Origin: an uncultured Planctomycetia bacterium
Lineage (GTDB): Bacteria; Omnitrophota; Gorgyraeia; Duberdicusellales; 4484-171
Length of the DNA: 32,000 bases
Direction: 5' to 3'
Assembly (NCBI GenBank): GCA_964536865.1
Contig: CAZHYN010000003.1
Coordinates: forward strand, 30,001 to 62,000
Under the pieces are notes generated by a model. That model was not told where the DNA came from, made no database searches, and saw nothing but the letters and a program-made list of their open reading frames with translations. Made by a program: the position numbers and the translations under genes. Shown here one piece after another: positions 1,466 to 19,020 of the stretch. How positions within the stretch are numbered: the stretch's first letter is position 1; each line of letters starts with the position of its first letter.

Positions 1466-2281
1466 CTACTTACCTCTCACCATAGGTACGAATCGCACAG
1501 GAGCGATGTTTTTTATTTGCAATCCTTCTTTATCTTTTATTATTAATTTTAGATATTGAAAATGTTTCCCCATAGGAATAACCATTCTACCTCCTACCTT
1601 CAGCTGTTGAACGAGTTTAGAAGGAATAGAGGAAGGAGCACAGGTCACTATAATAGCATCAAAAGGGGCAAACTCATCCCATCCTAAGAATCCATCTCCA
1701 CACTTTACTTTAATATTCTGATATCCTAATTCTCTTAATCTCTTCTCGGCATTGAGAGCTAAAGGTTCTAAAATTTCGATAGTATAAATTTCCTTAGCTA
1801 ACTCTGCTAAAACAGCGGTCTGGTAACCGCTACCTGTACCAATCTCCAACACTCTCTCATCTCCTTCCAACTGAAGAAGTTCGGTCATCAAGGCAACAAT
1901 ATAGGGTTGAGAAATAGTTTGATTATAACCAATAGGTAAAGGACTATCAAAGTATGCTAAATTTTTAACTCCTGAAGGAACGAATCTATGACGAGGGACT
2001 TTAAGCATCGCTTCTATAACTCTCTTATCTTTTACTCCCCGAGCAATTATCTGCTCTTCTACCATCCTCTTTCTCAGAGGGAAAAAACTATCTTGAGTAT
2101 AACCAATGAGGGGAAAAGATAAAAGACTTAAGATTAGTAAACCCCGAACCACGCCTTTCCAGGCGTGGCTTTGGAGTATACCCTTCGGGTCTTTTGATAT
2201 GCATTCATCCACGGCTTTACCTCGCCCTTTCAAGGAAAGGGCGAGGTGGCTTTCTGTGGTTCGGGGTAAACTCTTCCTCAC
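1466..2281 (-). CDS. pcm: Protein-L-isoaspartate O-methyltransferase with hydrophobic N-terminal (signal/anchor-like) segment; annotated 5' end probably spurious
   Basis: PCMT motifs are present (ISQPYIVALM, LEIGTGSGYQTAVLA). The first ~43 codons are read through the repeat element at 2141-2267. A GTG at 2152 would give MVRGLLILSLLSFPLIGYTQ... as a more plausible start. Confidence 0.85.
   Translation of the reverse strand: MRKSLPRTTESHLALSLKGRGKAVDECISKDPKGILQSHAWKGVVRGLLILSLLSFPLIGYTQDSFFPLRKRMVEEQIIARGVKDKRVIEAMLKVPRHRFVPSGVKNLAYFDSPLPIGYNQTISQPYIVALMTELLQLEGDERVLEIGTGSGYQTAVLAELAKEIYTIEILEPLALNAEKRLRELGYQNIKVKCGDGFLGWDEFAPFDAIIVTCAPSSIPSKLVQQLKVGGRMVIPMGKHFQYLKLIIKDKEGLQIKNIAPVRFVPMVRGK
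2141..2267 (-). repeat. Copy 1 of a ~127-nt GC-rich structured palindromic element (MITE/RPE-like element or ncRNA)
   Basis: About 83% identical by hand alignment to 7818..7943. Terminal 12-bp inverted repeat ACCCCGAACCAC/GTGGTTCGGGGT, a 13-bp hairpin with CTT loop and an 8-bp hairpin with tetraloop. About 55% G+C by hand count, against visibly AT-rich flanks. Confidence 0.8.
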
Positions 2282-2687
2282 TGTCTTAAAACCTCGCTAT
2301 TGAAATAACAAATACTTACTAGCCTAACTAATGTGATTTATTATATCATAAATTGTATACTTTTAATCTAAACTTACTGATACATAACAAAAAGTTAAAT
2401 CTCTACTATAGTTATGGAAAGAATAAACTCAACAATAGTCTTTTTATGATATTTATTACATTCTTACTTAGAAATATAAAGAAAAGACTATCGATTAACT
2501 AGAAAGCACCTCGGAAGGTAAAACTGGTTACTAAAGCTCAAAACTTTCTATTTGTCTATTGAAAACATTCCTCTCTGTTATACGTAATAGAACAACTCAC
2601 CATTTAGATTTAGAAAGAGTTTAGAGGATTAAATTCATAAAAATGACTATCCTTATATCTCTTCTATTATTGTAGGGGATATCTTAG

Positions 2688-3110
2688 CTATTTACCTAGA
2701 GCTTGCCTTAAATCCATGGCGTGTTCCTGCTCCATACCTAGTATATTTCGTAATTGTTGAGCAAGAATAAACTCTCCCAGTGCTTCCGCTTGCTCTATTC
2801 TTAGTTTGTATCTTCTTATCGCATCTTCCTCTCCTTCTAAATCCTGATTAAGCATTTCTATATTATCGTCTGAAGTGTATATTTTACCGATATCAACGGT
2901 AGGAACTCCTCCTAGAAAATCTATCTGTTCAGCTAAGACTACCGCATGTCGAATCTCCTCAGTAGCATGAATTTTTAATTCCTTAATAATATCACCATAC
3001 TGGGCTCCCGACATAACCGCAGCATGTTGGATATACTGGATCGCTGCAGAATATTCTAACGATAAATCTGTGTTTAGTAACTCAATTAATTCTTTCTTAG
3101 TTATACCCAT
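2688..3110 (-). CDS. Ferritin-like diiron protein (bacterioferritin family, apparently without the haem-ligand Met)
   Basis: 140 aa with an E / ExxH / E / ExxH pattern (LSLEYSAAIQY, TEEIRHA, EGEEDAIRRY, MEQEHA). Ile replaces the Met that precedes the ExxH His in haem-binding Bfr. Confidence 0.8.
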   Translation of the reverse strand: MGITKKELIELLNTDLSLEYSAAIQYIQHAAVMSGAQYGDIIKELKIHATEEIRHAVVLAEQIDFLGGVPTVDIGKIYTSDDNIEMLNQDLEGEEDAIRRYKLRIEQAEALGEFILAQQLRNILGMEQEHAMDLRQALGK

Positions 3111-3340
3111 TTTACCTCCTAGATAACTTAAGAATACTTACGAAATTTAAATATTGTATTCATAAATCTTTAAATCACTATCTAACATAACAAACCCCTT
3201 TGTCTCAAAAACCCCTTCTTAAAAAACTTTTGATACCAGAATATTTTAGAGAGGTCTATTATTGAGAGAAATATCTAGAAGATCCCCACCCATCCCACCA
3301 ACATTGACAGATTCTTCTTTTTTTCTTTCTAAAGAAAAAT

Positions 3341-3384
3341 TTTTTATTCATTATCTTTTATATTTTTATTCATTATCTTTTATA
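3341..3384. repeat. Perfect 22-bp tandem duplication spanning the trmO stop codon
   Basis: TTTTTATTCATTATCTTTTATA occurs at 3341-3362 and again at 3363-3384. The unit contains the last codons (KDNE) and the stop of the 3366..3893 ORF. Confidence 0.9.
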
Positions 3385-3893
3385 AATCTCCCATCGTCTT
3401 TTGTGTCCTTAAGTCTATGTACTCTTCTCTCTAACCATCCTATCTTGTCTACTTTTCTTATATCAAATTCAGGCACATAAGGCTTTATATCTAAGAGGGG
3501 TGTGCCATCAACAATATCTACATCTCTAATATATAAAATATTTCTTCTAATCCTCAAGAGTCTTACCACAGAAATACCTATGGGATTCGGTCTTTTTGGA
3601 GCACGTGTAGCAAACACTCCATGAAAGTTATTATCCATATAAGGTTTAACGAGCGAGGAGTATCCTCGAACTAAATGAAAATGAAAAACTAAAATTATGT
3701 GAGAAAAACCTTCAAGATCTTTTAATCCTTCTATATACTCTTTATTTACAACAATTCTCCCTTTAGTTTCTTCTGCAGACTTTGGTTGAATGGGAGTACC
3801 TTTAGAAGACTTAAAAGGCGTATAGATTACACCAATTGGTTTATAAGATATACTTTTTAAATACATCCTTTTTAACTTCTCTTCTTTCTGCAC
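3366..3893 (-). CDS. trmO: tRNA (t6A37) methyltransferase TrmO/TsaA (YaeB/UPF0066 family)
   Basis: Family motifs read by eye: YKPIGVIYTPF, GFSHIILVFHFH, RPNPIGISVV, VDGTPLLDIKPY. Confidence 0.85.
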   Translation of the reverse strand: MQKEEKLKRMYLKSISYKPIGVIYTPFKSSKGTPIQPKSAEETKGRIVVNKEYIEGLKDLEGFSHIILVFHFHLVRGYSSLVKPYMDNNFHGVFATRAPKRPNPIGISVVRLLRIRRNILYIRDVDIVDGTPLLDIKPYVPEFDIRKVDKIGWLERRVHRLKDTKDDGRFIKDNE

Positions 3894-4151
3894 CCTTTTA
3901 CTCTACACTTCTTGTTGTGCTCACCTAATTAAATGTTAATAAATTATAAACCAACGTCAAGAATTTTCTATAGCTATATAATTATTTATAAAAGTCTCCT
4001 CAAGTAGATTTTTTCTTCAGTTTATATTCTTACTTAATTTAAACAAAACCTTAATCTTTTACTGGTATTTAAGAAAAAAAATTAGAAATTAGGGACGGGG
4101 TCTTGAGGTTTTGTTCTCTAAGGGATAAGCGCCGGATGAGGTACCTGAAAC

Positions 4152-4412
4152 TTATAAATCCAATGTAACTTCGTTGTTTTTCTCATTTATCTCTTTAATT
4201 TGATTGTTGGGGTCTACTTTTATCTTTAATTTGTATTTACCGGAACTTTGAGGCACCCATTTGAAACTCAATTTCCTCTTTTCAAACCCTTTTATATTCC
4301 ATAAGGAAATACTCTTATACTCATGGTTATTAATAAAAATCTTAACTTGGGTTCGTCTAATTAAGTTAGACGAATTATTTTTTATAATAAATGAGATAAA
4401 TTTTATTATAAA
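4152..4412 (-). pseudogene. Remnant of a CARDB-like cell-adhesion domain protein (no start codon, upstream frames broken)
   Basis: Minus-strand frame reads ...NNSSNLIRRTQVKIFINNHEYKSISLWNIKGFEKRKLSFKWVPQSSGKYKLKIKVDPNNQIKEINEKNNEVTLDL*. The end resembles the CARDB pattern (G.Y.i...vD..n.i.E.nE.NN). An in-frame TGA lies just upstream, and a signal-peptide-like MKK start near 4629 is in a broken frame. Confidence 0.4.
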
Positions 4413-4709
4413 TCACTCAGGAAGATCGTTTAGAATATTGCCTTCTTCGTTTTTTCTTTTATCTTATTATCTAGATTAGGAAATCTTGAAAATTATTATA
4501 GATTTTCTTAAAGGATCTTCTAAAGCTTACCCCGAATTAAACTCTACTTTACTTTGGAGTTAATGGATCAAAGATTCTTTTTTCTATTGGAACTTATAAC
4601 TTGGGAACAAAAAATCTTTACTTTTTCATTATTGATATTTAAAAGGAGATGGCCTCACATTCATCATAGTTTAAAAGAACTCTTCGTATGTGCTTGATTT
4701 ATAAAAAGT

Positions 4710-6284
4710 TCAGGAAGTCAATAATTGCTTTGCTTTCTGTAACTTCTCAAAGAAAAATTCCTTATATAGCTGTACAGTCCAAGATCTTACAATTCTTTGG
4801 CCAATGATACGAAAGACATAATTACGAGATCTTCGACACCATTTCTTCCATCCTACTCTGATCCTGTTAAAATAGAAAGGTAAACTAATAATAGAAATCA
4901 AATTCAACAAAAATATGAATAAGTATCTTATATGATAAAAATGTCCCATAATTTTTCGTATGGCAGACTGCATCCCTTCAGGAGTAAGAGGATAATCTGG
5001 TTTAAAGAGAGGAAAAGTGCCATCATAGTATTCCCAGCCCAATACAGAGCGAGGATATACTCGGCTGTTAGAGAGGAGTCTTGCTCTTAACTCCGTACCA
5101 GGTAGGGGGATAGGCAAGAGTACCTGGATGGTATCAATCTTTGCTTTTTTTATAAAATTCCTGAAATATTTTATTCTTTCTTCAACCCTCATTCTAAAAT
5201 TAAGTTTCTCTTTTGTGGGATAACCAAAAATAAACATACCATGTATGAAGAATCCAAATCTGTGAAAAACCCTAGTCAATTCTAACATATCTCTGGATCT
5301 TAAAGACTTATTCATAGCTTTAAGCTCTTCATCTATTGGGGACTCAAAACCAATACTTACAACCTTGATATTAGCTTGCCTCATTGCCGTGAGTAACTCT
5401 TCATCCTTAGCTTTATCTAAGCGGATTTGAACTGTAAATCTCAAAGCCACACCCCTTGATGTTTGATATTCTGCTAACATTTTACATAGTTTTAAAGTTT
5501 CGTCGCGGTCCTGACCAAATAGGTCATCGATAATAAAGAATTCTCTTGCACCCATTGTCTTTACAAGCTTATCAACCTGCCTAATTAGTTTTTGGCTGGA
5601 TGCATAGCGAGGCTTACCTTTAACTGTACAAAACTCACAATTCATTTTACATCCTCGAACTCTTCCCACGGGAAACAGTTTTATCCTAGCGTATTTAAGA
5701 AGAGAGAAATCAGGAAGAGGAAGGTCATCAAGATTTTGGATAGGAATCCGTTGAGTGGTATAAATTATTTTGTCCTCCTTCCTAAAAGCAATGCCAGGTA
5801 TCGAAGACAAATCACCTCCTTCAGAAAAAGCACAAAGGAGTTCTCTTATACTCATCTCTCCCTCTCCTCGGACGATACAATCTATACCTGAAAATAAAGC
5901 CTCGGGTATTGTTTCATCCACAAAGTGTTGACCACCAGCAATAGTTATTACTCCTCTCTGTTTATAAAATTTAGTCAATTCATAGATTCGAGGTAAAGAA
6001 CAGGTTAATCCTCCATAGAACCCTACCACGTCCGCTGGTTTCTGCTTCTGAAGTAATTCATGGTTTATGTTACCTGAAAAATTTCTTAGATGGGGATTAC
6101 GAAAATTATTTTCATCGATAACCTCTACATCCCATCCTTTGACTTCCTGTGCAGAAACAGCAATGTAGAGAGGTCCCAAAGTAGTTGTTTTGTTAGTAAC
6201 AAAAGAATATACATTAAATCTAGAATAAGCCGGGATGATTATACGTAACAAATATTTTTTCTTGGACTCTAATGTATATTTCAT
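4710..6284 (-). CDS. B12-binding-domain radical SAM protein with a C-terminal hydrophobic helix
   Basis: CxxxCxxC cluster motif (GCKMNCEFCTV), an N-terminal Rossmann-like B12-binding region, and a hydrophobic segment IRYLFIFLLNLISIISLPFYF near the C-terminus. Confidence 0.8.
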   Translation of the reverse strand: MKYTLESKKKYLLRIIIPAYSRFNVYSFVTNKTTTLGPLYIAVSAQEVKGWDVEVIDENNFRNPHLRNFSGNINHELLQKQKPADVVGFYGGLTCSLPRIYELTKFYKQRGVITIAGGQHFVDETIPEALFSGIDCIVRGEGEMSIRELLCAFSEGGDLSSIPGIAFRKEDKIIYTTQRIPIQNLDDLPLPDFSLLKYARIKLFPVGRVRGCKMNCEFCTVKGKPRYASSQKLIRQVDKLVKTMGAREFFIIDDLFGQDRDETLKLCKMLAEYQTSRGVALRFTVQIRLDKAKDEELLTAMRQANIKVVSIGFESPIDEELKAMNKSLRSRDMLELTRVFHRFGFFIHGMFIFGYPTKEKLNFRMRVEERIKYFRNFIKKAKIDTIQVLLPIPLPGTELRARLLSNSRVYPRSVLGWEYYDGTFPLFKPDYPLTPEGMQSAIRKIMGHFYHIRYLFIFLLNLISIISLPFYFNRIRVGWKKWCRRSRNYVFRIIGQRIVRSWTVQLYKEFFFEKLQKAKQLLTS

Positions 6285-6533
6285 GTTATCTTAACACTTA
6301 AACAGTAGCTTAATCCTAAAATCTCTAAAGCAATCATTGTGATTATCCAGACTATTTTTAAATAAAATAAATTTGTTACTATTAAGCTGGAATTTGATTT
6401 AGAGCTCCCTCTACTTAGAAGGTTAGTTACTCCTATCCAAGAACATAGATTCACAAGGTTTGACTTAATTGATTTCTTCGTTATAAATCTCCTATAATGA
6501 CTAAGGTTACCATAAACCTCATTACAAATAGGG

Positions 6534-6554
6534 AATACCTAAAGATTAGGTATT
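6534..6554. repeat. Perfect 9-bp inverted repeat with 3-bp spacer (AATACCTAA-AGA-TTAGGTATT), candidate operator
   Basis: Read directly. It lies 250 bp upstream of the radical SAM start. The arms contain the CCTAA/TTAGG pentamers also used by the feo operators, but in everted order. Confidence 0.5.
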
Positions 6555-6834
6555 ATATATAGAAGCAATTTTAAAGATGGATGGACTAACTACTTCAAAT
6601 ATAAAGAGTTGTAGTTGATATCCCTATTTATCGCCACCCTAAAATGAACTTCTTATATTAACTTTAAGGCTAAATTATTCCTACACTATACACCCTAATA
6701 CTTTTCAGTACTATTGTCAAGATAAAAATGTTTGGAGTATGTGTCAAGTATTTGGGGGTAGCTTTTTTAATGTTAGTTTGTCAAAAGGTTTAATGTAGAC
6801 CTAACCCAGCCTGTCTATCATTCATCGTCTTTTA

Positions 6835-6975
6835 ACGTTTTCACGTTCATACGTTTATACGTTCCCACGTTCATACGTTTACACATTTTTACGTTCTCAC
6901 GTTTACACGTTCCCATGTTTATACGTTCTCACGTTTACACGTTTATACGTTTTAACGTTTATACGTTTTAACGCC
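6835..6975. repeat. Array of 17 contiguous 8-bp units with conserved ACGTT core (ACGTTYNN) plus a partial 18th
   Basis: Units read in order: acgttttc acgttcat acgtttat acgttccc acgttcat acgtttac acattttt acgttctc acgtttac acgttccc atgtttat acgttctc acgtttac acgtttat acgtttta acgtttat acgtttta acgcc. The period is exactly 8, the core is conserved and the 3' half is variable. Confidence 0.95.
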
Positions 6976-7471
6976 TTTGACATATTATTTTAAAAACATT
7001 TTCCCAAGTTAAAGGGCATCCAGAAAAAATATAACAAAATTTATTGCGATAGCAATTAAAATTGTTAACATTTGATTCCTAAGCTAAAGGTTTATTTATT
7101 AAAGGTTTGTTCCTTCTCTCCGGCTAAAATCCTTAATCTTATGCAACATTTCAGTTTCAAACAAAAATGTTGCACATCATTTTTATTTCCAGTGAATCCC
7201 TTTTACAAATTTCCCATTATTCACAAAAAAGAAAAACTACTACTATTCTTCCCTTCCTACTACCTCACTAAATTTTACACTAACCAACAAAATTTCTGAA
7301 GATGCAGTTCGTTAGGTAAATTTTATGATATTCCAAATTCTTCAGCTCAACCTCGCAGGTTAATTTGGTTGTTTCCACTCCTGGGGTGGAAATTGCAAAT
7401 TTTTATCTCTGCCATAAAAGCTTCAGATAATTTGTAAAACAGAATTATAGTTAAATACATTTATCTTTTTG

Positions 7472-7639
7472 CTATTGCAATGTAAAGACGATAGAGACCT
7501 CCGTTGTTAAAGAAGATACCTTCATTTCTTCAGGTATAGGTGGAAAAGGTTGGGCTCTTTTTATTGTAGAGATTGCTTCTTTATTTAAGATATTAAAACT
7601 TGATGACTTTATAATTTTGATATCTCTGGCAAAACCTGT
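7472..7639 (-). pseudogene. tonB: Remnant of a TonB-family C-terminal domain
   Basis: Minus-strand frame reads GFARDIKIIKSSSFNILNKEAISTIKRAQPFPPIPEEMKVSSLTTEVSIVFTLQ*. This fits the TonB_C pattern (kSSG..lD.aA..av....f.P.P ... F.l). There is no N-terminal part, no start codon, and a TAA lies a few codons upstream. Confidence 0.6.
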
Positions 7640-7809
7640 AGATAAATATGAATACCTACTGCTAAAATATGTGCTACAGGACTTCTTGATTCTTTACATA
7701 ACTTTTCTGCTTCCTCTAATTTGCTTTCCAGCAATAATTTCTTTACCTGAGCAGTTAGATTACCTACATTGGTCTTTATCCTGTAAAAGTGCCACAGTTT
7801 TCCTAAAAC
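7640..7809 (-). pseudogene. exbB: Remnant of an ExbB/TolQ-family N-terminal region, fused out of frame to the tonB remnant
   Basis: Frame reads LGKLWHFYRIKTNVGNLTAQVKKLLLESKLEEAEKLCKESRSPVAHILAVGIHI. This matches the post-TM1 cytoplasmic segment typical of ExbB/TolQ (lERlw.lrr......l..g.leeA..lC..s.sP.a.il.aGl). TM1 and everything after it are missing, and the repeat element abuts the 5' end. Confidence 0.5.
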
Positions 7810-7817
7810 AATAACAA

Positions 7818-7943
7818 ACCCCGAACCACAGGTTTATACCCGTGGCTTTGGGATGCCTCCTTCAGGTCTTTGATATACATTCATCCCCGACTTTACCCCG
7901 CCCTTTCAAGGAAAGGGCGGGGTGGCTTTCTGCGGTTCGGGGT
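7818..7943 (-). repeat. Copy 2 of the ~127-nt GC-rich structured palindromic element
   Basis: Same architecture as 2141..2267, with compensatory substitutions in the stems and a 1-nt indel that breaks the reading frame used in copy 1. Confidence 0.8.
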
Positions 7944-8182
7944 AAAAGCTATTACTGAACATAACAAAATCGGCTAAATTAAAAGGCCACCTTTTAAGAA
8001 GAATTTGAGCATAAAAACCTTTTTTCTCCGGTTATCTATTTAACAACGGCTGGAGGGTTATTTTTTATAAATGATTGCCTCTTTACCTAAAACTTCATTG
8101 ATGCCTCACCAAAAAAGTATTAAGGTATTATCTCCATTTTCTTTGATACTCTTCTTAAAAAATGAGGCAAATTAAACTTCTT

Positions 8183-9199
8183 CTAAAATGTCCACATCCC
8201 TCCACATTTAATCACAAAATCCTCCTTCCAACCTTTCTTAGCCTTATAGTCCCAATCAATTCCTACAAATACTTTTTTATGATGTCCAGCCTCTCCTCTT
8301 AATGGAGAATATACAAATTTTAAAGCCAAAGCATGCCTATAACGTTCAATATGTGATTTATATTGAGGGTTACCCGGAGCTGTTACTCTTATCTTTTCTT
8401 CAAATTCATTAGGTTTAATTTGTATCCATCCTATAGGACCACCTACTAAGGTAAATTTTTTATCAGGAAAAGGGGAATATTCTACAAAGAACTTATAGCC
8501 AATTATATCTCCAACTTCCTCATCAGATTTACCCCAACCACTCACATCTCTTCTTTCTCCTATCAAATCATAAAAAATATGGTTACAAAGTTCAACTTTA
8601 TCAGTAAGCTCTTCGGTAGATAATAAAGCTATTCTTAACACATTAGCTCCTCTGCTCTCATTTCCTAACTCATTTTTTAATCCTTCTTTTTCAGTAACAT
8701 CAAATTTATAACCTAACCCAATTGCTGCATCTATATTTTTGAAAATTCCTATAGTCTGTTTATCTATAAATTTATATTTTCCTGAAATCCAAATTTCGGT
8801 TAAACCATTATCTTTTTTAGTGCACCATTTACCTGAACCCGGCCTTTTACCTCCTTTGCAATTTAGCTGGTGAGTCTCATACTTTCTATCTATCCATTCA
8901 TAAGTAAAGAGAAGCCCTACATCAAACTTATCAGTTAAACCATATCCTAAACGAAGGTCTATCTTATCTCTTTTAGAATTCCAGCCCGAAGGCAAATCTT
9001 CTATTTTTCCTGTAGCAGGAGACCAGTACTTTTTATGTTCAATATGCCTGTAAAGCACTTTTGGCCAGAATTCTCCTTTCTTTAATCCATGGGGGCAACC
9101 GGTTACTCTTTCTGCAATTGCGTTCTCTGAAAACAAAAAGGAAATTACAATTGTTACCACCCCAAACAAAAATACCGAGTTTCTAAACAGATATCTCAT
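8183..9199 (-). CDS. Putative outer-membrane beta-barrel protein / porin, unknown family
   Basis: N-terminal signal peptide (MRYLFRNSVFLFGVVTIVISFLFSENAIA|E), alternating amphipathic segments rich in G/Y/D/K, and a C-terminal aromatic residue (...GGMWTF) typical of beta-barrel OMPs. Confidence 0.65.
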   Translation of the reverse strand: MRYLFRNSVFLFGVVTIVISFLFSENAIAERVTGCPHGLKKGEFWPKVLYRHIEHKKYWSPATGKIEDLPSGWNSKRDKIDLRLGYGLTDKFDVGLLFTYEWIDRKYETHQLNCKGGKRPGSGKWCTKKDNGLTEIWISGKYKFIDKQTIGIFKNIDAAIGLGYKFDVTEKEGLKNELGNESRGANVLRIALLSTEELTDKVELCNHIFYDLIGERRDVSGWGKSDEEVGDIIGYKFFVEYSPFPDKKFTLVGGPIGWIQIKPNEFEEKIRVTAPGNPQYKSHIERYRHALALKFVYSPLRGEAGHHKKVFVGIDWDYKAKKGWKEDFVIKCGGMWTF

Positions 9200-12817: not shown

Positions 12818-14023
12818 TTGAATACTTTCCCATTCTTTGTGCAACTTTTTTAAGATAAGAGAAGCTCTTTGAAAAGGTGGAGGTCTTAAGGGCAAAATGC
12901 CTGAATCCCTCATGCCCTATAAGGTCTTTTATCATACTTCCCGAAGGCATAGAGAAATTTGCCCGGGCCACAGAGAGACTAAAGAAGGAAGCGTTGTGTG
13001 GAATCATAAATGATAATTCCACTACCCCCAGGATTTCCCGGCGCTTTGAAAGGGTGTTTAACACCACCGGCTCCAAGTCTTCCATTGACCGTTGGAAGCA
13101 TGAGGCGGCGGATAAGCTGAGTGCCAAGGAGATCATCGCAAGATTGAACTTCTCCGGTATCCTCTGTATTGATGAATATAAACCCAAGCGGTATAAGGGC
13201 TATGACTTAATAGACTCTGATGCTAAAACCTCAAGAATACTCTATCTTGAAAAGGCCTATGGTTTAGGCAGGGGCGTTGTCAAAGAGCATTTTCAGACAA
13301 TAAAATCGCTGGGTATTGAACCTTGGGCAATAATCTTTGATATGCGGGCCTGCTTCCCTAAAGCAGCCAAAACTGTCTTCGGCAAAGATATTATCATCCA
13401 GCATGACTACTTCCATGTAATGAAGATAATCCACTACCACCTAAATAGGGCGATGGCTGAATATAGAAGAATCTTAAAAGAGCAAGGCATAGATACTTTA
13501 GATATCTGGCTTGCCCGCTGGGTTATCCTAAAGAATATGGAACGCTGGAGTTTTAAAGAGTGCAGAATCATCGAAAATCTTCTTGCCAAATATCAGGGAA
13601 CAACCATTGAAGATATCCTTATCTTAAAACAAAAGATTAGAGATATATTCATTGCGTCTAAAAGCCAACAGGAAGCCTATTTAAAACGGGATGCTCTTAC
13701 CAAAGAAAACTGGTATTTTAAGAATAAACACTTTGCCAATATCATTAAATTCTTAAATACACCATACTTCAGATACATAACCACATTCTTAGATCATCCA
13801 GAGATACCCAAGAGTGGCAATTCAGAGAATGTAATCCGTACCTGAAGGCAGATGGAGAAAGTAAGATATGGATTTAAGACAGAGAGAGGAAGGCAGAACC
13901 ACTTGAAACTGTATCAGATTTACCGCTATCTGGGAGGTAAGTTAGACTAGGGACAATTTTTCTTATCTAACTCGTTAATCATCAAGTAGTTATCGTGAAA
14001 AATTGCACAAAATTTAGAAGCTT
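12818..14023 (+). mobile_element. ISL3-family-like insertion sequence, copy A (internally deleted, inactive)
   Basis: The left inverted repeat GAATACTTTCCCATTCTTTGTGCAAC resembles copy B's IRL. The right end AAAAATTGCACAAAATTTAGAAGCTT resembles copy B's IRR. About 165 bp covering the zinc-finger N-terminus of the transposase is missing relative to copy B. Confidence 0.65.
12877..13950 (+). pseudogene. ISL3-like DDE transposase, copy A: N-terminally truncated, with an in-frame TGA
   Basis: DDE_Tnp_ISL3-like motifs are present (ILCIDEYKPKR, IIFDMRACFPKAAKTVF..IIQHDYFHVMK, SGNSENVIR). TGA at 13843-13845 sits where copy B has TGG (Trp). The frame then continues RQMEKVRYGFKTERGRQNHLKLYQIYRYLGGKLD* to 13950. 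Confidence 0.75.
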
Positions 14024-15438
14024 TCCCAAATCTATCGCAAATATTTTATATAAGGCCCTTGCTTCTGTCATAAGTTAAGATAGCCTTCTTTTAAAAAGGA
14101 GGCTATTTATGGGGAAAGAAGCAAGAGTAAAAGTTATTAAGAGTCGTGTTCCTAAATGGGTTATCTGCCCATTTTGTGGAGTAAAACAACCTTTTAAGAA
14201 AGAAAGAGGAAATTGGCGTATGGTAAAAGATATTAACCTTGATAAATCTCTCCTTCTTAAGGTCCAAACTATTTATGCTAAATGCTTAAATCCTCATTGT
14301 CAAAGAAATAGCTTTGCTTTACCAAATGGTTTTGAAAAATATCAAAGAGCAACAGATAGATTTAAACAAGAAGCTTTGAGTGGTTTAATCTGTGATAACT
14401 CTACCTTACCCAGAGTAGCTAAAAGATTTAATCGCATATTTAATACTACTGGCTCTAAATCTACCCTTGATAGATGGAAGCGCAAAGAGGCAGATAAATA
14501 TGATTTTAAACAGATTATCTCTAAATTAGGTTTCGGTGGCATTCTCTGTATTGATGAGTATAAGCCTAAACGCTCTAAAACCTATGACTTAATAGCTTCT
14601 GATAGATTAACTGAGAGGATACTCTATTTGGAGAATCTGCCTAAAATATATTCTCCTAAAGCAAAAGGTGGTATTGTTGCTAAAGGCTTAGTGGAAGATT
14701 TTGCTTATAAATTAAAGGATTTTGGCTTAAATCCTTTTGGGTGTATAGTGGATTTAGCCAGTGTCTACCCTAAACAGCTCAAAAAAGTTGAGCCTGGTGT
14801 AATTATCCAGTTTGATTACTTCCATATAGTTAAGATAGTATACTGGTATCTTAAGAATGCTATTAAGAGCTTCAGGGTATCCTTAAGAGAAACTGATGAA
14901 GTAGCTTATTCTGATATTTGGAAGCATAAATGGCGAATATTAAAAAACTTTGATAAACTATCCCTTAAAGAACATCTAATCTTAGAATACCTTATGAAGC
15001 GTTATAAGGCAACTTTAATAGAAAAAGTATTAATTTTCAAAGAGCAGGTAAGGGATATATTTAATTTATCTCAAACCCCTTAAAGAGGCTTATCAGAGAA
15101 GAGAGGAACTTATAAAAGAGCATTACTGGAGAGATTCTTATCATTTATCTAAGATCGTTAAGTTTTTATCTACTTACAAATTTGAGTATATGATTAGCTA
15201 CCTTAAATATCCTAATATACCCCGTTCAGGTAATTCTGAAAGCTATATAAGAGTATGGCGATAGATGGAGAAAGTAAGATATGGGCTTACCCCTAAAGGT
15301 AGACAAAATCATCTTAAATTATACCAGATTTACCATTATTTGGGTGGAAAAGTTTAACAGACAAAAATTTTAAGCATAACTTACTGGTTATCAAAGAGTA
15401 AAAGATATTTTTTGCGATAAAATTGGGAAAGCTTCGAA
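14015..15438 (+). mobile_element. ISL3-family-like insertion sequence, copy B (full length but inactive)
   Basis: Terminal inverted repeats: GAAGCTTTCCCAAATCTATCGCAAATATTTT (from 14017), and the reverse complement of the right end, GAAGCTTTCCCAATTTTATCGCAAAAAATAT (ending ~15435-15438). Confidence 0.7.
14109..15357 (+). pseudogene. ISL3-like DDE transposase, copy B: frameshift near 15075-15085 plus an in-frame TAG
   Basis: N-terminal zf-ISL3-like CPFCG...CLNPHC, then DDE motifs (ILCIDEYKPKR, IVDLASVYP..IIQFDYFHIVK). The frame breaks at the C4 run (LSQTP*) and resumes as KPLKEAYQRREELIKEHYW...SGNSESYIRVWR. TAG at 15262-15264 is followed by MEKVRYGLTPKGRQNHLKLYQIYHYLGGKV*. Confidence 0.75.
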
Positions 15439-15601: not shown

Positions 15602-16850
15602 TTAGAGTGCTTCTTCAGGATATGCTTCGATTCTGTGGATACTTAAATCTGCTTCCATTATCTCTTCTTGTTCAGAAAGTCTTATTCCTACAGTAGATTT
15701 CAATAGATAGTAAATAGTAAATCCACTTGCAAGAGCAAAAACAATTGCTATTAAATTTCCTATAAGTTGAGCAGTTAAGTTTACTCCGTCTACTCCCCCC
15801 AAGTGCTTTTATTCCAAAAATTCCACAGGCAATCCCTCCCCAAGAACCAGCTACACCATATAGAGGCCATACCCCTAAAACGTCATCAATTTTAAGAATT
15901 TCAGTTTCAATATGAAAATATGAAAAAGTTTTACGAAGATTAAACCAGCTATTCCTTTAATAATTAAAGCACCGAGAGGATGTACCACATCAAATCCAGA
16001 ACATATAGCAATAAGTTCAGCCAAAGCACCGTTATGGATAAAGGCAGCATCATTTTTAGAAATAATTAGTGTTACAACTATCCCACCTACTATTACTATA
16101 AGAGAATTTACTGCTACTAAACTAGAGATGTTAGTCAATTTTCCTGTGCTCATCACATTAAAAACAAACCACCCTACACATAAAAGCCAACTTCCTAGAG
16201 CAAGAAAAGGTATGTTACTTACCCTTGTAGGATGCTTCTTCTACCAATGTATCTCTTGATATGAGGATTTAAAAGGAAAATAGCAGGAAGAGCGAGCCAA
16301 CTTCCCATAGAGTACACTACTACTAAACCAGCATAATCATGAAAGGGAACGCCTGTTAGATTCGCTAACCATGAATCAGGTTGTCCTAGAAAAGTATTTT
16401 TTCCCTACACAAAGGATTCAAAAAGGGGATAAATAAATCCTACCAGTACTCCTCCTGCTAATGATTGAGCCCAGAATTTTGCTTGTTCCACGATTCCTCC
16501 TGAAATTATTGCTAGAATACAGGCAGCAAAAGTCAGTAGAAAGAAGAAATGGATAAGGTTAAATCCTTAACTTCCATTCAATAATTGCTGAGCAGTTTTA
16601 AAGAAAGAGATACCATAAGCAATAGGGAAACTGATGAAAAAGTAAGCAACTGTAGAGATGCCCCAATTAATGATAATTTTTACTAAAGCATTAACTTGAT
16701 TTTTCTTCCTTACCGAACCAACTTATAGGAAAACAAAACCAGTATGTATAGAAAAAATTAGAGTTGCTCTCATTAATAGAAAAAAGATATTTCCACTATG
16801 GAGAAGGTTTCCTAAAGCCTTGGATAATGCACCTACATCCGTTTTTTCAT
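15602..16850 (-). pseudogene. amt: Ammonium transporter Amt, multiply disrupted
   Basis: Amt-like segments run through the locus (FLxVGSVRKKNQVNAL, FHDYAGLVVVYSMGSWLAL, LGSWLLCVGWFVFN, NGALAELIAICSGFDVV, KIDDVLGVWPLYGVAGSWGGIACGIFG). In-frame stops lie at 16723-16725 (TAA), 16567-16569 (TAA) and 16405-16407 (TAG, at the Trp of the WvWg motif). There are at least three frameshifts, one in a G6 run near 15795-15800, and a conserved His reads Tyr (VVY). Confidence 0.85.
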
Positions 16851-17918: not shown

Positions 17919-18395
17919 TTAATTAAAGAGGAACCACAACCTTATTACTCCTTGGGTAGCTAATTCTACTATGATTCCTGCCGTCATCACTCCTAGTAAG
18001 ATGCTTAGTATGGTTTTTAATATATTGAATCTTAATAAGTTAGCTATAAAAGTCCCTGTCCAAGCTCCTGTAGTGGGAAAAGGAATACCTACAAAAAGTA
18101 TTACTCCTATTACTCCATAAGTAGAGATGAGTTTTGACTTTTTCTCTGCAATAGTAAACCATTGTTTTAGAAAATTTCCTAAAAAGGGAACGTCTTTTAA
18201 TTTGTGGAAGAGATAACTAAAAAATAGATACAGGGGAATAACTGGCAACATATTGCCGATAATAGAGAGAAGATAACTTTTTAAAGGAGAAAGTCCTTTA
18301 GCTATAGCAAAAGGGATAGCTCCTCTTAATTCTACTATAGGAGAAGCAGCTAAAGCGATTGTAATAATTTCACTTTCTTTCAACATATTTTCCAA
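17919..18395 (-). CDS. Small multidrug-export family membrane protein (COG2426-like)
   Basis: 158 aa, four hydrophobic helices, with family-like motifs PIVELRGAIPFA and GIPFPTTGAWTG. Confidence 0.65.
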   Translation of the reverse strand: MENMLKESEIITIALAASPIVELRGAIPFAIAKGLSPLKSYLLSIIGNMLPVIPLYLFFSYLFHKLKDVPFLGNFLKQWFTIAEKKSKLISTYGVIGVILFVGIPFPTTGAWTGTFIANLLRFNILKTILSILLGVMTAGIIVELATQGVIRLWFLFN

Positions 18396-19020
18396 TTAAA
18401 GGAACAAAAATGCAACTTCCTGCACTTCTTCTCTTAACTTCTCTATCAGTGATTTTATCTGCTATAATAAGCTCTTGTTGAAAAGCGCCACCTATAGGCA
18501 TTACTAATCTTCCCCCAATTCTTAATTGTTGTATTAAAGGAGAGGGGATATCTTTAGCAGCAGCAGTGACAATTATTTTGTCAAAGGGTGATTCTTCTTC
18601 CCATCCCAAAGTACCATCGCCTATCCTTATTTTTACTTTAAACCCTAAAGATTTTAAAATTTGCTGAGCTTTCTCAGCCAGTTGAGGAATTCGTTCCACA
18701 GTAAATACTTTACATCCTAAATAGGCTAATATAGCTGACTGATAACCACTGCCTGTACCTATTTCTAATATTTTTTCATCTTTTTCAGGATCAAGGAGTT
18801 GGGTCATTAAAGCTACTATAAACGGTTGAGATATTGTTTGTCCCCATCCTATAGAGAGAGGATAATCTCCATAAGCGTAGCTTCGTTTCTCTTCAGGTAT
18901 AAAAAGATGACGCGGAATATTTTTAAAAGCTTCTAGAATTTTTTTGCTATTTATAGCTCGGGGTATCAATTGCTCTTCAATCATCCTTTTTCTAGAAAGC
19001 ATATAGTTATTTTCTTTCAT
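18370..19020 (-). CDS. pcm: Protein-L-isoaspartate O-methyltransferase (second, cytoplasmic-type paralog)
   Basis: Motifs ISQPFIVALM and LEIGTGSGYQSAILA. 216 aa with no hydrophobic N-terminus. Confidence 0.9.
   Translation of the reverse strand: MKENNYMLSRKRMIEEQLIPRAINSKKILEAFKNIPRHLFIPEEKRSYAYGDYPLSIGWGQTISQPFIVALMTQLLDPEKDEKILEIGTGSGYQSAILAYLGCKVFTVERIPQLAEKAQQILKSLGFKVKIRIGDGTLGWEEESPFDKIIVTAAAKDIPSPLIQQLRIGGRLVMPIGGAFQQELIIADKITDREVKRRSAGSCIFVPLIGKYVERK

Follow-up and report, generated by a model that had tools for sequence, protein, structure and literature searches.

The window analysed here is a stretch of 32,000 nt that contains two copies of a short palindromic element on the minus strand: copy A at 2141-2267 (127 nt) and copy B at 7818-7943 (126 nt). 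Both were present where an earlier sequence-only reading had placed them. That reading had put their identity at about 83% and their G+C content at about 55% in an AT-rich context, which agrees with a global alignment of the two regions (106/127 positions, 83.5%) and with G+C contents of 55.1% and 55.6% versus 33.3% for the window. The 12-nt end of the terminal inverted repeat, ACCCCGAACCAC, occurs in the window only at these four element ends; in shuffled sequence 0.38 matches were expected, and none of 100 shuffles reached four. The copies share one architecture, consisting of a 106-nt two-hairpin backbone and a nested 29-nt hairpin, which lies on the minus strand at 2219-2247 in copy A (ACCTCGCCCTTTC-loop-GAAAGGGCGAGGT) and at 7895-7923 in copy B (ACCCCGCCCTTTC-loop-GAAAGGGCGGGGT). 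The nested module of copy A has the same termini as the outer element (ACCC..GGGT) and is missing in the 106-nt members of the family. A 12-bp closing stem enclosing a 13-bp and an 8-bp hairpin had been proposed for both copies. The two hairpins exist, but the joint structure is impossible, because the closing stem and the short hairpin use the same GTGG and are therefore alternatives. The reported differences between the copies were all recovered: a T-A pair of the long hairpin is replaced by C-G, the short hairpin has two C-G pairs turned into G-C, two G.U positions are found in copy B, and a 1-nt indel separates copy A from copy B.

Copy A lies in pcm (1466-2281, minus strand), which codes for a secreted/periplasmic paralogue of protein-L-isoaspartate O-methyltransferase of 271 aa in the public annotation (P0001). 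It is flanked by AA (TT on the minus strand) at 2139-2140 and at 2268-2269. These are the two copies of a duplicated dinucleotide, whose size was taken from empty sites and the flank consensus. The target rebuilt on the minus strand is AGTTTACTA, with TTTAC within it. The insertion falls in the signal-peptide codons and amounts to 127 + 2 = 129 nt, that is 43 codons, in frame and without a stop. As a result, the Pcm of the window reads MRKSL, then 43 residues from the element, then LILSLLSFPLIGYTQ. Homologues of 227-245 aa lack the 43 residues and have their signal peptide at the very start (e.g., MQRWLLILGLLSF). Removal of the 129 nt from pcm left a protein of 228 aa that starts with MRKSLLILSLLSFPLIGYTQ and aligns end to end with the homologues. 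The element-derived insert of 43 residues explains the 271-aa Pcm as an annotation artefact. Independent short-read contigs of the source organism end inside copy A, as expected because the element is a repeat. A second pcm paralogue of 216 aa without a signal peptide is located at 18370-19020 on the minus strand, and with it present the cell may be able to tolerate damage to the exported paralogue.

Copy B splits an exbB-like ORF (7609-8012, minus strand), a pseudogene of 91 codons when rebuilt. The duplicated AA (TT on the minus strand) lies at 7816-7817 and 7944-7945, and the empty site in relatives reads GCTTTTGCT. Here, the insertion of 126 + 2 = 128 nt is out of frame and falls in the first transmembrane segment. 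Read through on the minus strand, the ORF gives MLKFFLKGGLLI, a stop, PILLCSVIAF, the element and then VLGKLWHFYRIK; the stop results from a change of TGG to TAG at 7974-7976. The out-of-frame copy and this stop codon lead us to regard the gene as dead. A search of a protein collection revealed an intact 91-aa homologue in an Omnitrophota MAG (P0121, 81% identity), and a PDB search with the rebuilt peptide gave no useful match. The exbB-like ORF of the relatives is just as short (91 aa). On the minus strand at 7470-7610, directly after the exbB-like remnant and with no exbD between, there is a short ORF fragment that by our own reading resembles the TonB C-terminal domain (..AISTIKRAQPFPPIPEEMKVSSLTTEVSIVFTLQ). 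The exbB-exbD-tonB cluster thus appears to be largely deleted. The long non-coding stretch that runs from a radical-SAM gene to the exbB/tonB remnants also holds a tandem array at 6831-6968 in which an 8-nt unit is repeated about 17 times (consensus TTTACACG, 70% matches). The unit includes the TTTAC motif, and no copy of the element is inserted in the array.

The insertions were examined in three pairs of filled and empty loci, those of copy B, L048 and L045. Together with one case at the protein level, the three DNA-level empty sites show insertion into TTTAC-like sites. For copy B, the related contigs L052-L057 read ..AGCTTTTGCTATTG.., which corresponds to ..AGCTTTT-(126 nt)-TTGTTATTG.. in the window; in a shorter extract GCTTTTGC becomes GCTTTT-(126 nt)-TTG. 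In another extract, ..TCAGTAATAGCTTTTGCTATTGTTTTAG.. in L052-L057 stands against ..TCAGTAATAGCTTTT-(126 nt)-TTGTTATTGTTTTAG.. in the window, a net gain of 128 nt. The 106-nt copy in L048 was compared with the empty loci L061 and L062 from the metagenome of L048: GATTTACC becomes GATTT-(106 nt)-TTACC, with TT cleanly duplicated. The third pair is a 66-nt copy in L045, in opposite orientation and immediately upstream of the exbB-like gene that copy B splits in the window, at a place that is empty in L057. Taken over the empty sites, TT is the simplest duplication; TTT or TTTA would serve equally, and the sequence by itself allows a length of 2, 3 or 4 nt. A duplication of TA (IS630/mariner-type) or TTA was rejected; it fits the empty site of copy B only with extra mutations. 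Across 22 loci the flanks give the consensus TTT-element-TTAC, and a single locus group with GGTAA-element-AAATC has the identical target on the other strand. Of 23 insertions, 22 point the same way with respect to the asymmetric TTTAC sequence. Among the contigs with the empty site of copy B, L053, L055, L056 and L057 carry a reverse-transcriptase fragment (RVT_1, 104 aa) and small ORFs between feoB and a flavodoxin gene (e.g., L053 3745-4402). The fragment is missing in L052, and within this otherwise near-identical set it is lacking or annotated differently in some contigs. Possibly it is a group II intron or the remnant of a retroelement, polymorphic between these contigs.

Relatives of the element were sought in two scans. 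The one-genome-per-species scan, in which the pattern consisted of the two ends and a gap, matched 23 loci. One of them is a true relative (L002, a Candidatus Omnitrophota MAG), and the other 22 were discarded as chance matches in GC-rich genomes. For metagenomes, the conserved 5' 21-mer served as the query and matched 26 loci on sediment-type contigs; most of these have a G+C content of 33-39% and originate from a few related samples. About 22-23 distinct family loci with unrelated flanks were obtained. The names of the homologous proteins, taken with L002, put the source of the window in Omnitrophota. The palindromic elements form a dispersed, modular family of 41-140 nt with 12-bp ends ACCCCGAACCAC/GTGGTTCGGGGT, and these ends are almost unchanged over nine long copies. 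The basic form has 106 nt and can be written as ACCCCGAACCAC-AGAAAG-(CCACGGCT GTAA AGCCGTGG)-40 nt-(CCACGGGT GTAA ACCCGTGG)-TTCGGGGT. Terminal inverted repeats of 12 bp without mismatch (ACCCCGAACCAC ... GTGGTTCGGGGT) enclose two hairpins of the form CCACGGnT-GTAA-AnCCGTGG. The window copies represent this form with the 29-nt hairpin nested in the first stem-loop, and in L032 the second loop of a 140-nt copy holds a nested hairpin of another kind, 31 nt long. Further nested palindromes were found in L002, L034, L040 and L042, and the forms of 79 and 67 nt resemble composites with part of the interior deleted. The comparison shows that structural variants arise via nested hairpin insertions and internal deletions. 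At the orthologous loci L025 (1221-1326, 106 nt) and L031 (2420-2498, 79 nt), where the flanks are 80% identical, the element occupies one site. The shared site and differing forms imply that insertion was followed by rearrangement in place or by conversion between copies. Between two copies of the palindromic element, the contig L032 also contains another repeat family (805-900, 1210-1235 and 1360-1379). Its 46-nt unit (TATTCCTGGGGACAGTCYCCAAAGAAAACGGAAGGAGAAGATAA) occurs twice in tandem, and the core of the unit, GGGGACAGT, has two further inverted occurrences nearby.

Two copies are known in about 48 kb of the source organism; no further copy was found in 16 kb more of its sequence, nor in the empty-site loci. 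The elements have no coding capacity of their own, and ORFs that run through them are those of host genes. Four features of a MITE are seen here: small size without coding capacity, terminal inverted repeats, dispersed polymorphic copies, and a target-site duplication visible against the empty site. Viral contig, phage and plasmid collections contained no sequence similar to the element, and the literature search returned nothing relevant to it. We therefore regard it as a new family of a known kind of element: a MITE-like family, previously unnamed and otherwise ordinary, in Omnitrophota-like bacteria.

Most of the copies are intergenic, and 4 of about 23 lie inside ORFs. Three of these insertions occur in otherwise intact ORFs: pcm (129 nt, 43 codons), coaC (108 nt, 36 codons) and holB, which codes for delta-prime (69 nt, 23 codons). 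All three are multiples of three, free of stops and read in one common frame (LPRTTESH...). In L048, the 106-nt copy interrupts the flavoprotein domain of coaC, giving a protein of 216 aa (P0125). The same metagenome contains an uninterrupted allele in L062 (P0124, 180 aa, 93% identical), and the element explains why the 216-aa form coexists with the 180-aa form. In a structure model of the 216-aa CoaC, the flavoprotein core is predicted with confidence, and the 36 inserted residues are modelled as an unstructured loop (pLDDT <50). The open frame shared by the three intact ORFs is what would be expected if the sequence were a selected peptide-coding module, kept in genes for a functional inserted peptide (LPRTTESH...VRGL). 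We consider such a module extremely improbable. Most copies lie between genes, copy B breaks the frame, disorder is predicted for the insert, and alleles without the interruption are present in the same community. Chance alone leaves several frames of a GC-rich sequence open, and neither a dN/dS well below 1 nor a structured, conserved peptide was seen. With the 2-nt duplication, the size classes of 106, 79, 67 and 127 nt become 108, 81, 69 and 129 nt, which are multiples of three. The total is a multiple of three in 12 of 23 copies versus one third expected, the copies not being independent of one another. This excess may be due to chance or to a filter for tolerated in-gene insertions.

The sequence-only reading had offered a mobile palindromic element, a cis-regulatory leader and a small RNA as options, had leaned to a structured RNA, and had held that the substitutions preserve pairing only on the minus strand. 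According to the RNA interpretation, the element is a minus-strand structured RNA that acts as a leader or a small RNA for downstream genes. The fold itself is strong: as RNA, the window copies are far more stable than shuffled sequence (z about -6 to -7). This is true of both strands, with z from -5.2 to -6.8, so the strand cannot be chosen by the fold alone. The minus-only pairing rests on two positions in one copy, and both strands fold well. In 18 of 23 curated family copies, the more stable strand is the opposite one, the plus strand of the window. Several copies have A.C/C.A mismatches in the minus-strand sense, and at wobble-only positions we counted 30 G.U and 10 A.C in the minus sense versus 80 G.U and 10 A.C in the plus sense. 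The loops GUAA/GGAA on the minus strand are GNRA-like, which would suit an RNA, but the TTTAC target motif also accounts for the GUAA loops.

Covariation was assessed in two ways. RNAalifold with nine long copies gave an almost unchanged terminal stem, a covariation term of +0.8 and many uncompensated changes in the internal stems. A hand-specified four-helix structure had 87.3% of its positions paired, barely above the 85.7% in shuffles. Double compensatory changes, which favour the RNA interpretation, were found in 4 pairs, and against these stand about 30 broken cells, with about 13% of stem cells unpaired. Compensated changes are expected in a DNA element that must stay a palindrome, and need no selection on RNA. 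The sequence-only reading had itself named uncompensated stem variation, and random orientation with clear target-site duplications and no transcription, as signs against its RNA proposal. Uncompensated stem variation is common in the further copies, orientation relative to genes is mixed, and target-site duplications are clear.

The position of the copies was also compared with that of a leader. They had been described as lying directly at the 5' end of minus-strand genes. These genes are indeed where the copies are found, but the copies are not upstream of them; they lie inside the 5' coding regions of pcm and of the exbB-like ORF. The coaC copy likewise sits in coding sequence, not in a leader. 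All four in-gene copies, the two of the window among them, run in the same direction as their host gene, as an RNA acting on that gene would. Over the family, however, both neighbouring genes are co-oriented with the element in six loci and both are antisense in five, the others being convergent or divergent, and the genes are unrelated. In L032, two copies in opposite orientation lie 320 nt apart. Orthologous sites in close relatives lack the element, and neither inspection by eye nor a scan revealed a promoter adjoining the element that is common to the copies. Rfam scans bore out the earlier statement that no known RNA family is recognisable: with the gathering threshold the whole window had no match, and more permissive cut-offs brought up none either, whether E<=5 over positions 1900-8200 of the window or E<=1 over six further loci that carry the element. 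The element is missing from Rfam because it is a repeat and not an RNA family. A cis-regulatory leader or riboswitch would have a fixed position and orientation in the 5' UTR of consistent genes and covarying stems; here covariation is weak with many broken pairs, and the copies occupy coding, intergenic, convergent and antisense places beside unrelated genes. Taken together, these data make a minus-strand structured RNA very unlikely. Of the three options, it is the mobile element that stands, acting at the DNA level, as shown by the empty sites and the duplications that flank the copies, by their dispersal and mixed orientation, and by breaks in the assemblies.

We conclude that 2141-2267 and 7818-7943 are very probably copies of one mobile DNA element that is MITE-like and non-autonomous. 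Such an element would depend for its movement on a transposase supplied in trans, which would recognise the ends with their inverted repeats and cut the target with a 2-3-nt stagger. Nested units sit in the GTAAA hairpin loops, the reverse complement of TTTAC; these loops would recreate the target, which would account for the nesting of family members in one another. The compensatory-looking changes would reflect the upkeep of DNA palindromes and not selection on RNA. Copies in essential genes would survive only as stop-free multiples of three and would add a disordered loop to the protein. No autonomous partner, that is a transposase gene with the same ends, was found in the 229 kb examined, in which the terminal repeats all delimit short elements. 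As for transposase genes, the window has none but those of ISL3 type. They are two adjacent ISL3-family ORFs at 12877-13845 and 14109-15083 that share a 124-nt repeat of 70% identity, within a region (12877-15438) that has a 28-bp inverted repeat at 14014-14041 and 15411-15438. A 93-aa fragment of an ammonium transporter (15875-16156) adjoins them, and the region and this fragment form a small island marked by gene decay and IS activity. ISL3 was rejected as a partner: the ends of the window genes differ from those of the element, and ISL3 makes 8-bp duplications.

The near-uniform polarity towards the TTTAC target speaks against a MITE, as it is unusual for a cut-and-paste element with symmetric ends. 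It would be easier to understand if the element were a hairpin-dependent single-stranded DNA element moved by an HUH/Y1 transposase, either REP/REPIN-RAYT-like or a non-autonomous IS200/IS605 derivative (PATE). The enzyme would then recognise a hairpin folded from one strand and not double-stranded inverted repeats. The nested units of 29-31 nt (ACCCCG..CGGGGT) point in the same direction; they stand at TTT-unit-TTAC junctions like those of the full element, and their size fits hairpin recognition more easily than a DDE synaptic complex. Moreover, GTAA precedes the palindrome on the plus strand of the window, which is reminiscent of REPs, as these have a GTAG tetranucleotide. Nevertheless, the inverted repeats are perfect and terminal, and target bases are duplicated at three empty sites; mobilisation of IS200/IS605 and REP elements is known to use subterminal hairpins and to leave no duplication. 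REPs are extragenic, whereas 4 of about 23 copies here lie inside ORFs, and the window ORFs that were scanned or had precomputed Pfam hits included no Y1 transposase. We judge mobilisation by recognition of a single-stranded hairpin to be unlikely, with the 22:1 polarity and the tiny nested units leaving some room for it. There is likewise a small chance that the 29-31-nt hairpin units (ACCCCG...CGGGGT) inside larger elements are mobile in their own right. If so, Omnitrophota would possess a hairpin-recognising insertion system with units down to about 30 nt, stacked into composites and strongly polar to an asymmetric 5-nt target, which would fit neither classical DDE MITEs nor REP/RAYT or IS200/IS605.

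The preferred assignment to a MITE-like element removes a false lead, as there is no new regulatory RNA here. It records an unnamed repeat family for Omnitrophota, a poorly studied phylum of mostly uncultured bacteria, and accounts for assembly breaks in these metagenomes. The in-gene copies offer clean natural cases in which a mobile palindrome would be tolerated as a predicted disordered loop within essential enzymes, a situation also known from Rickettsia. For annotation in Omnitrophota the element is of practical use, and populations of the phylum could be tracked with it at strain level.

Several known systems share features with the element. Integron attC sites measure 60-140 nt and are likewise imperfect palindromes; their centre varies, and AAC...GTT triplets are conserved close to the ends. 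An attC site was rejected here: neither a cassette array nor an integrase is present in the window, RYYYAAC/GTTRRRY does not match the core, and copies sit in housekeeping ORFs with target bases duplicated. REP/BIME elements, and REPINs with their RAYT, are also short GC-rich palindromes in an AT-richer background, modular, present in many copies and with a tetranucleotide beside the palindrome. They are strictly extragenic, make no duplication and go with a RAYT gene, whereas our element has terminal repeats and a target duplication, inserts into ORFs and has no RAYT gene among the genes scanned, which were those of the window. IS200/IS605-derived PATEs have subterminal hairpins and neither terminal inverted repeats nor a duplication, unlike the perfect terminal repeats and duplication seen here.

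The palindromic elements of Rickettsia (RPE) also provide a likeness, as they are palindromes of about 100-150 nt that lie in frame and without stops in intact genes and add a peptide. In-frame, stop-free insertions into intact ORFs were found here in pcm, coaC and holB, and the predicted disordered loop of the coaC insert is RPE-like as well. The likeness is one of description, with no membership claimed: the host is Omnitrophota-like and belongs to another phylum, most copies are intergenic, and the terminal repeats, target motif and duplication are visible. The element behaves as do the bacterial MITEs exemplified by Correia/NEMIS of Neisseria and ERIC/IRU of enterobacteria. These are non-coding, about 100-150 nt long and dispersed, with terminal inverted repeats, a short target duplication at an AT-rich site, and size variants that arise via internal insertions or deletions. 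They form long hairpins when transcribed and often lie near or within transcription units. The differences are in the target, as Correia duplicates TA and our element duplicates TT(T) at TTTAC, in the Omnitrophota host, and in the nesting of mini-hairpins with the same termini, which is unusual.
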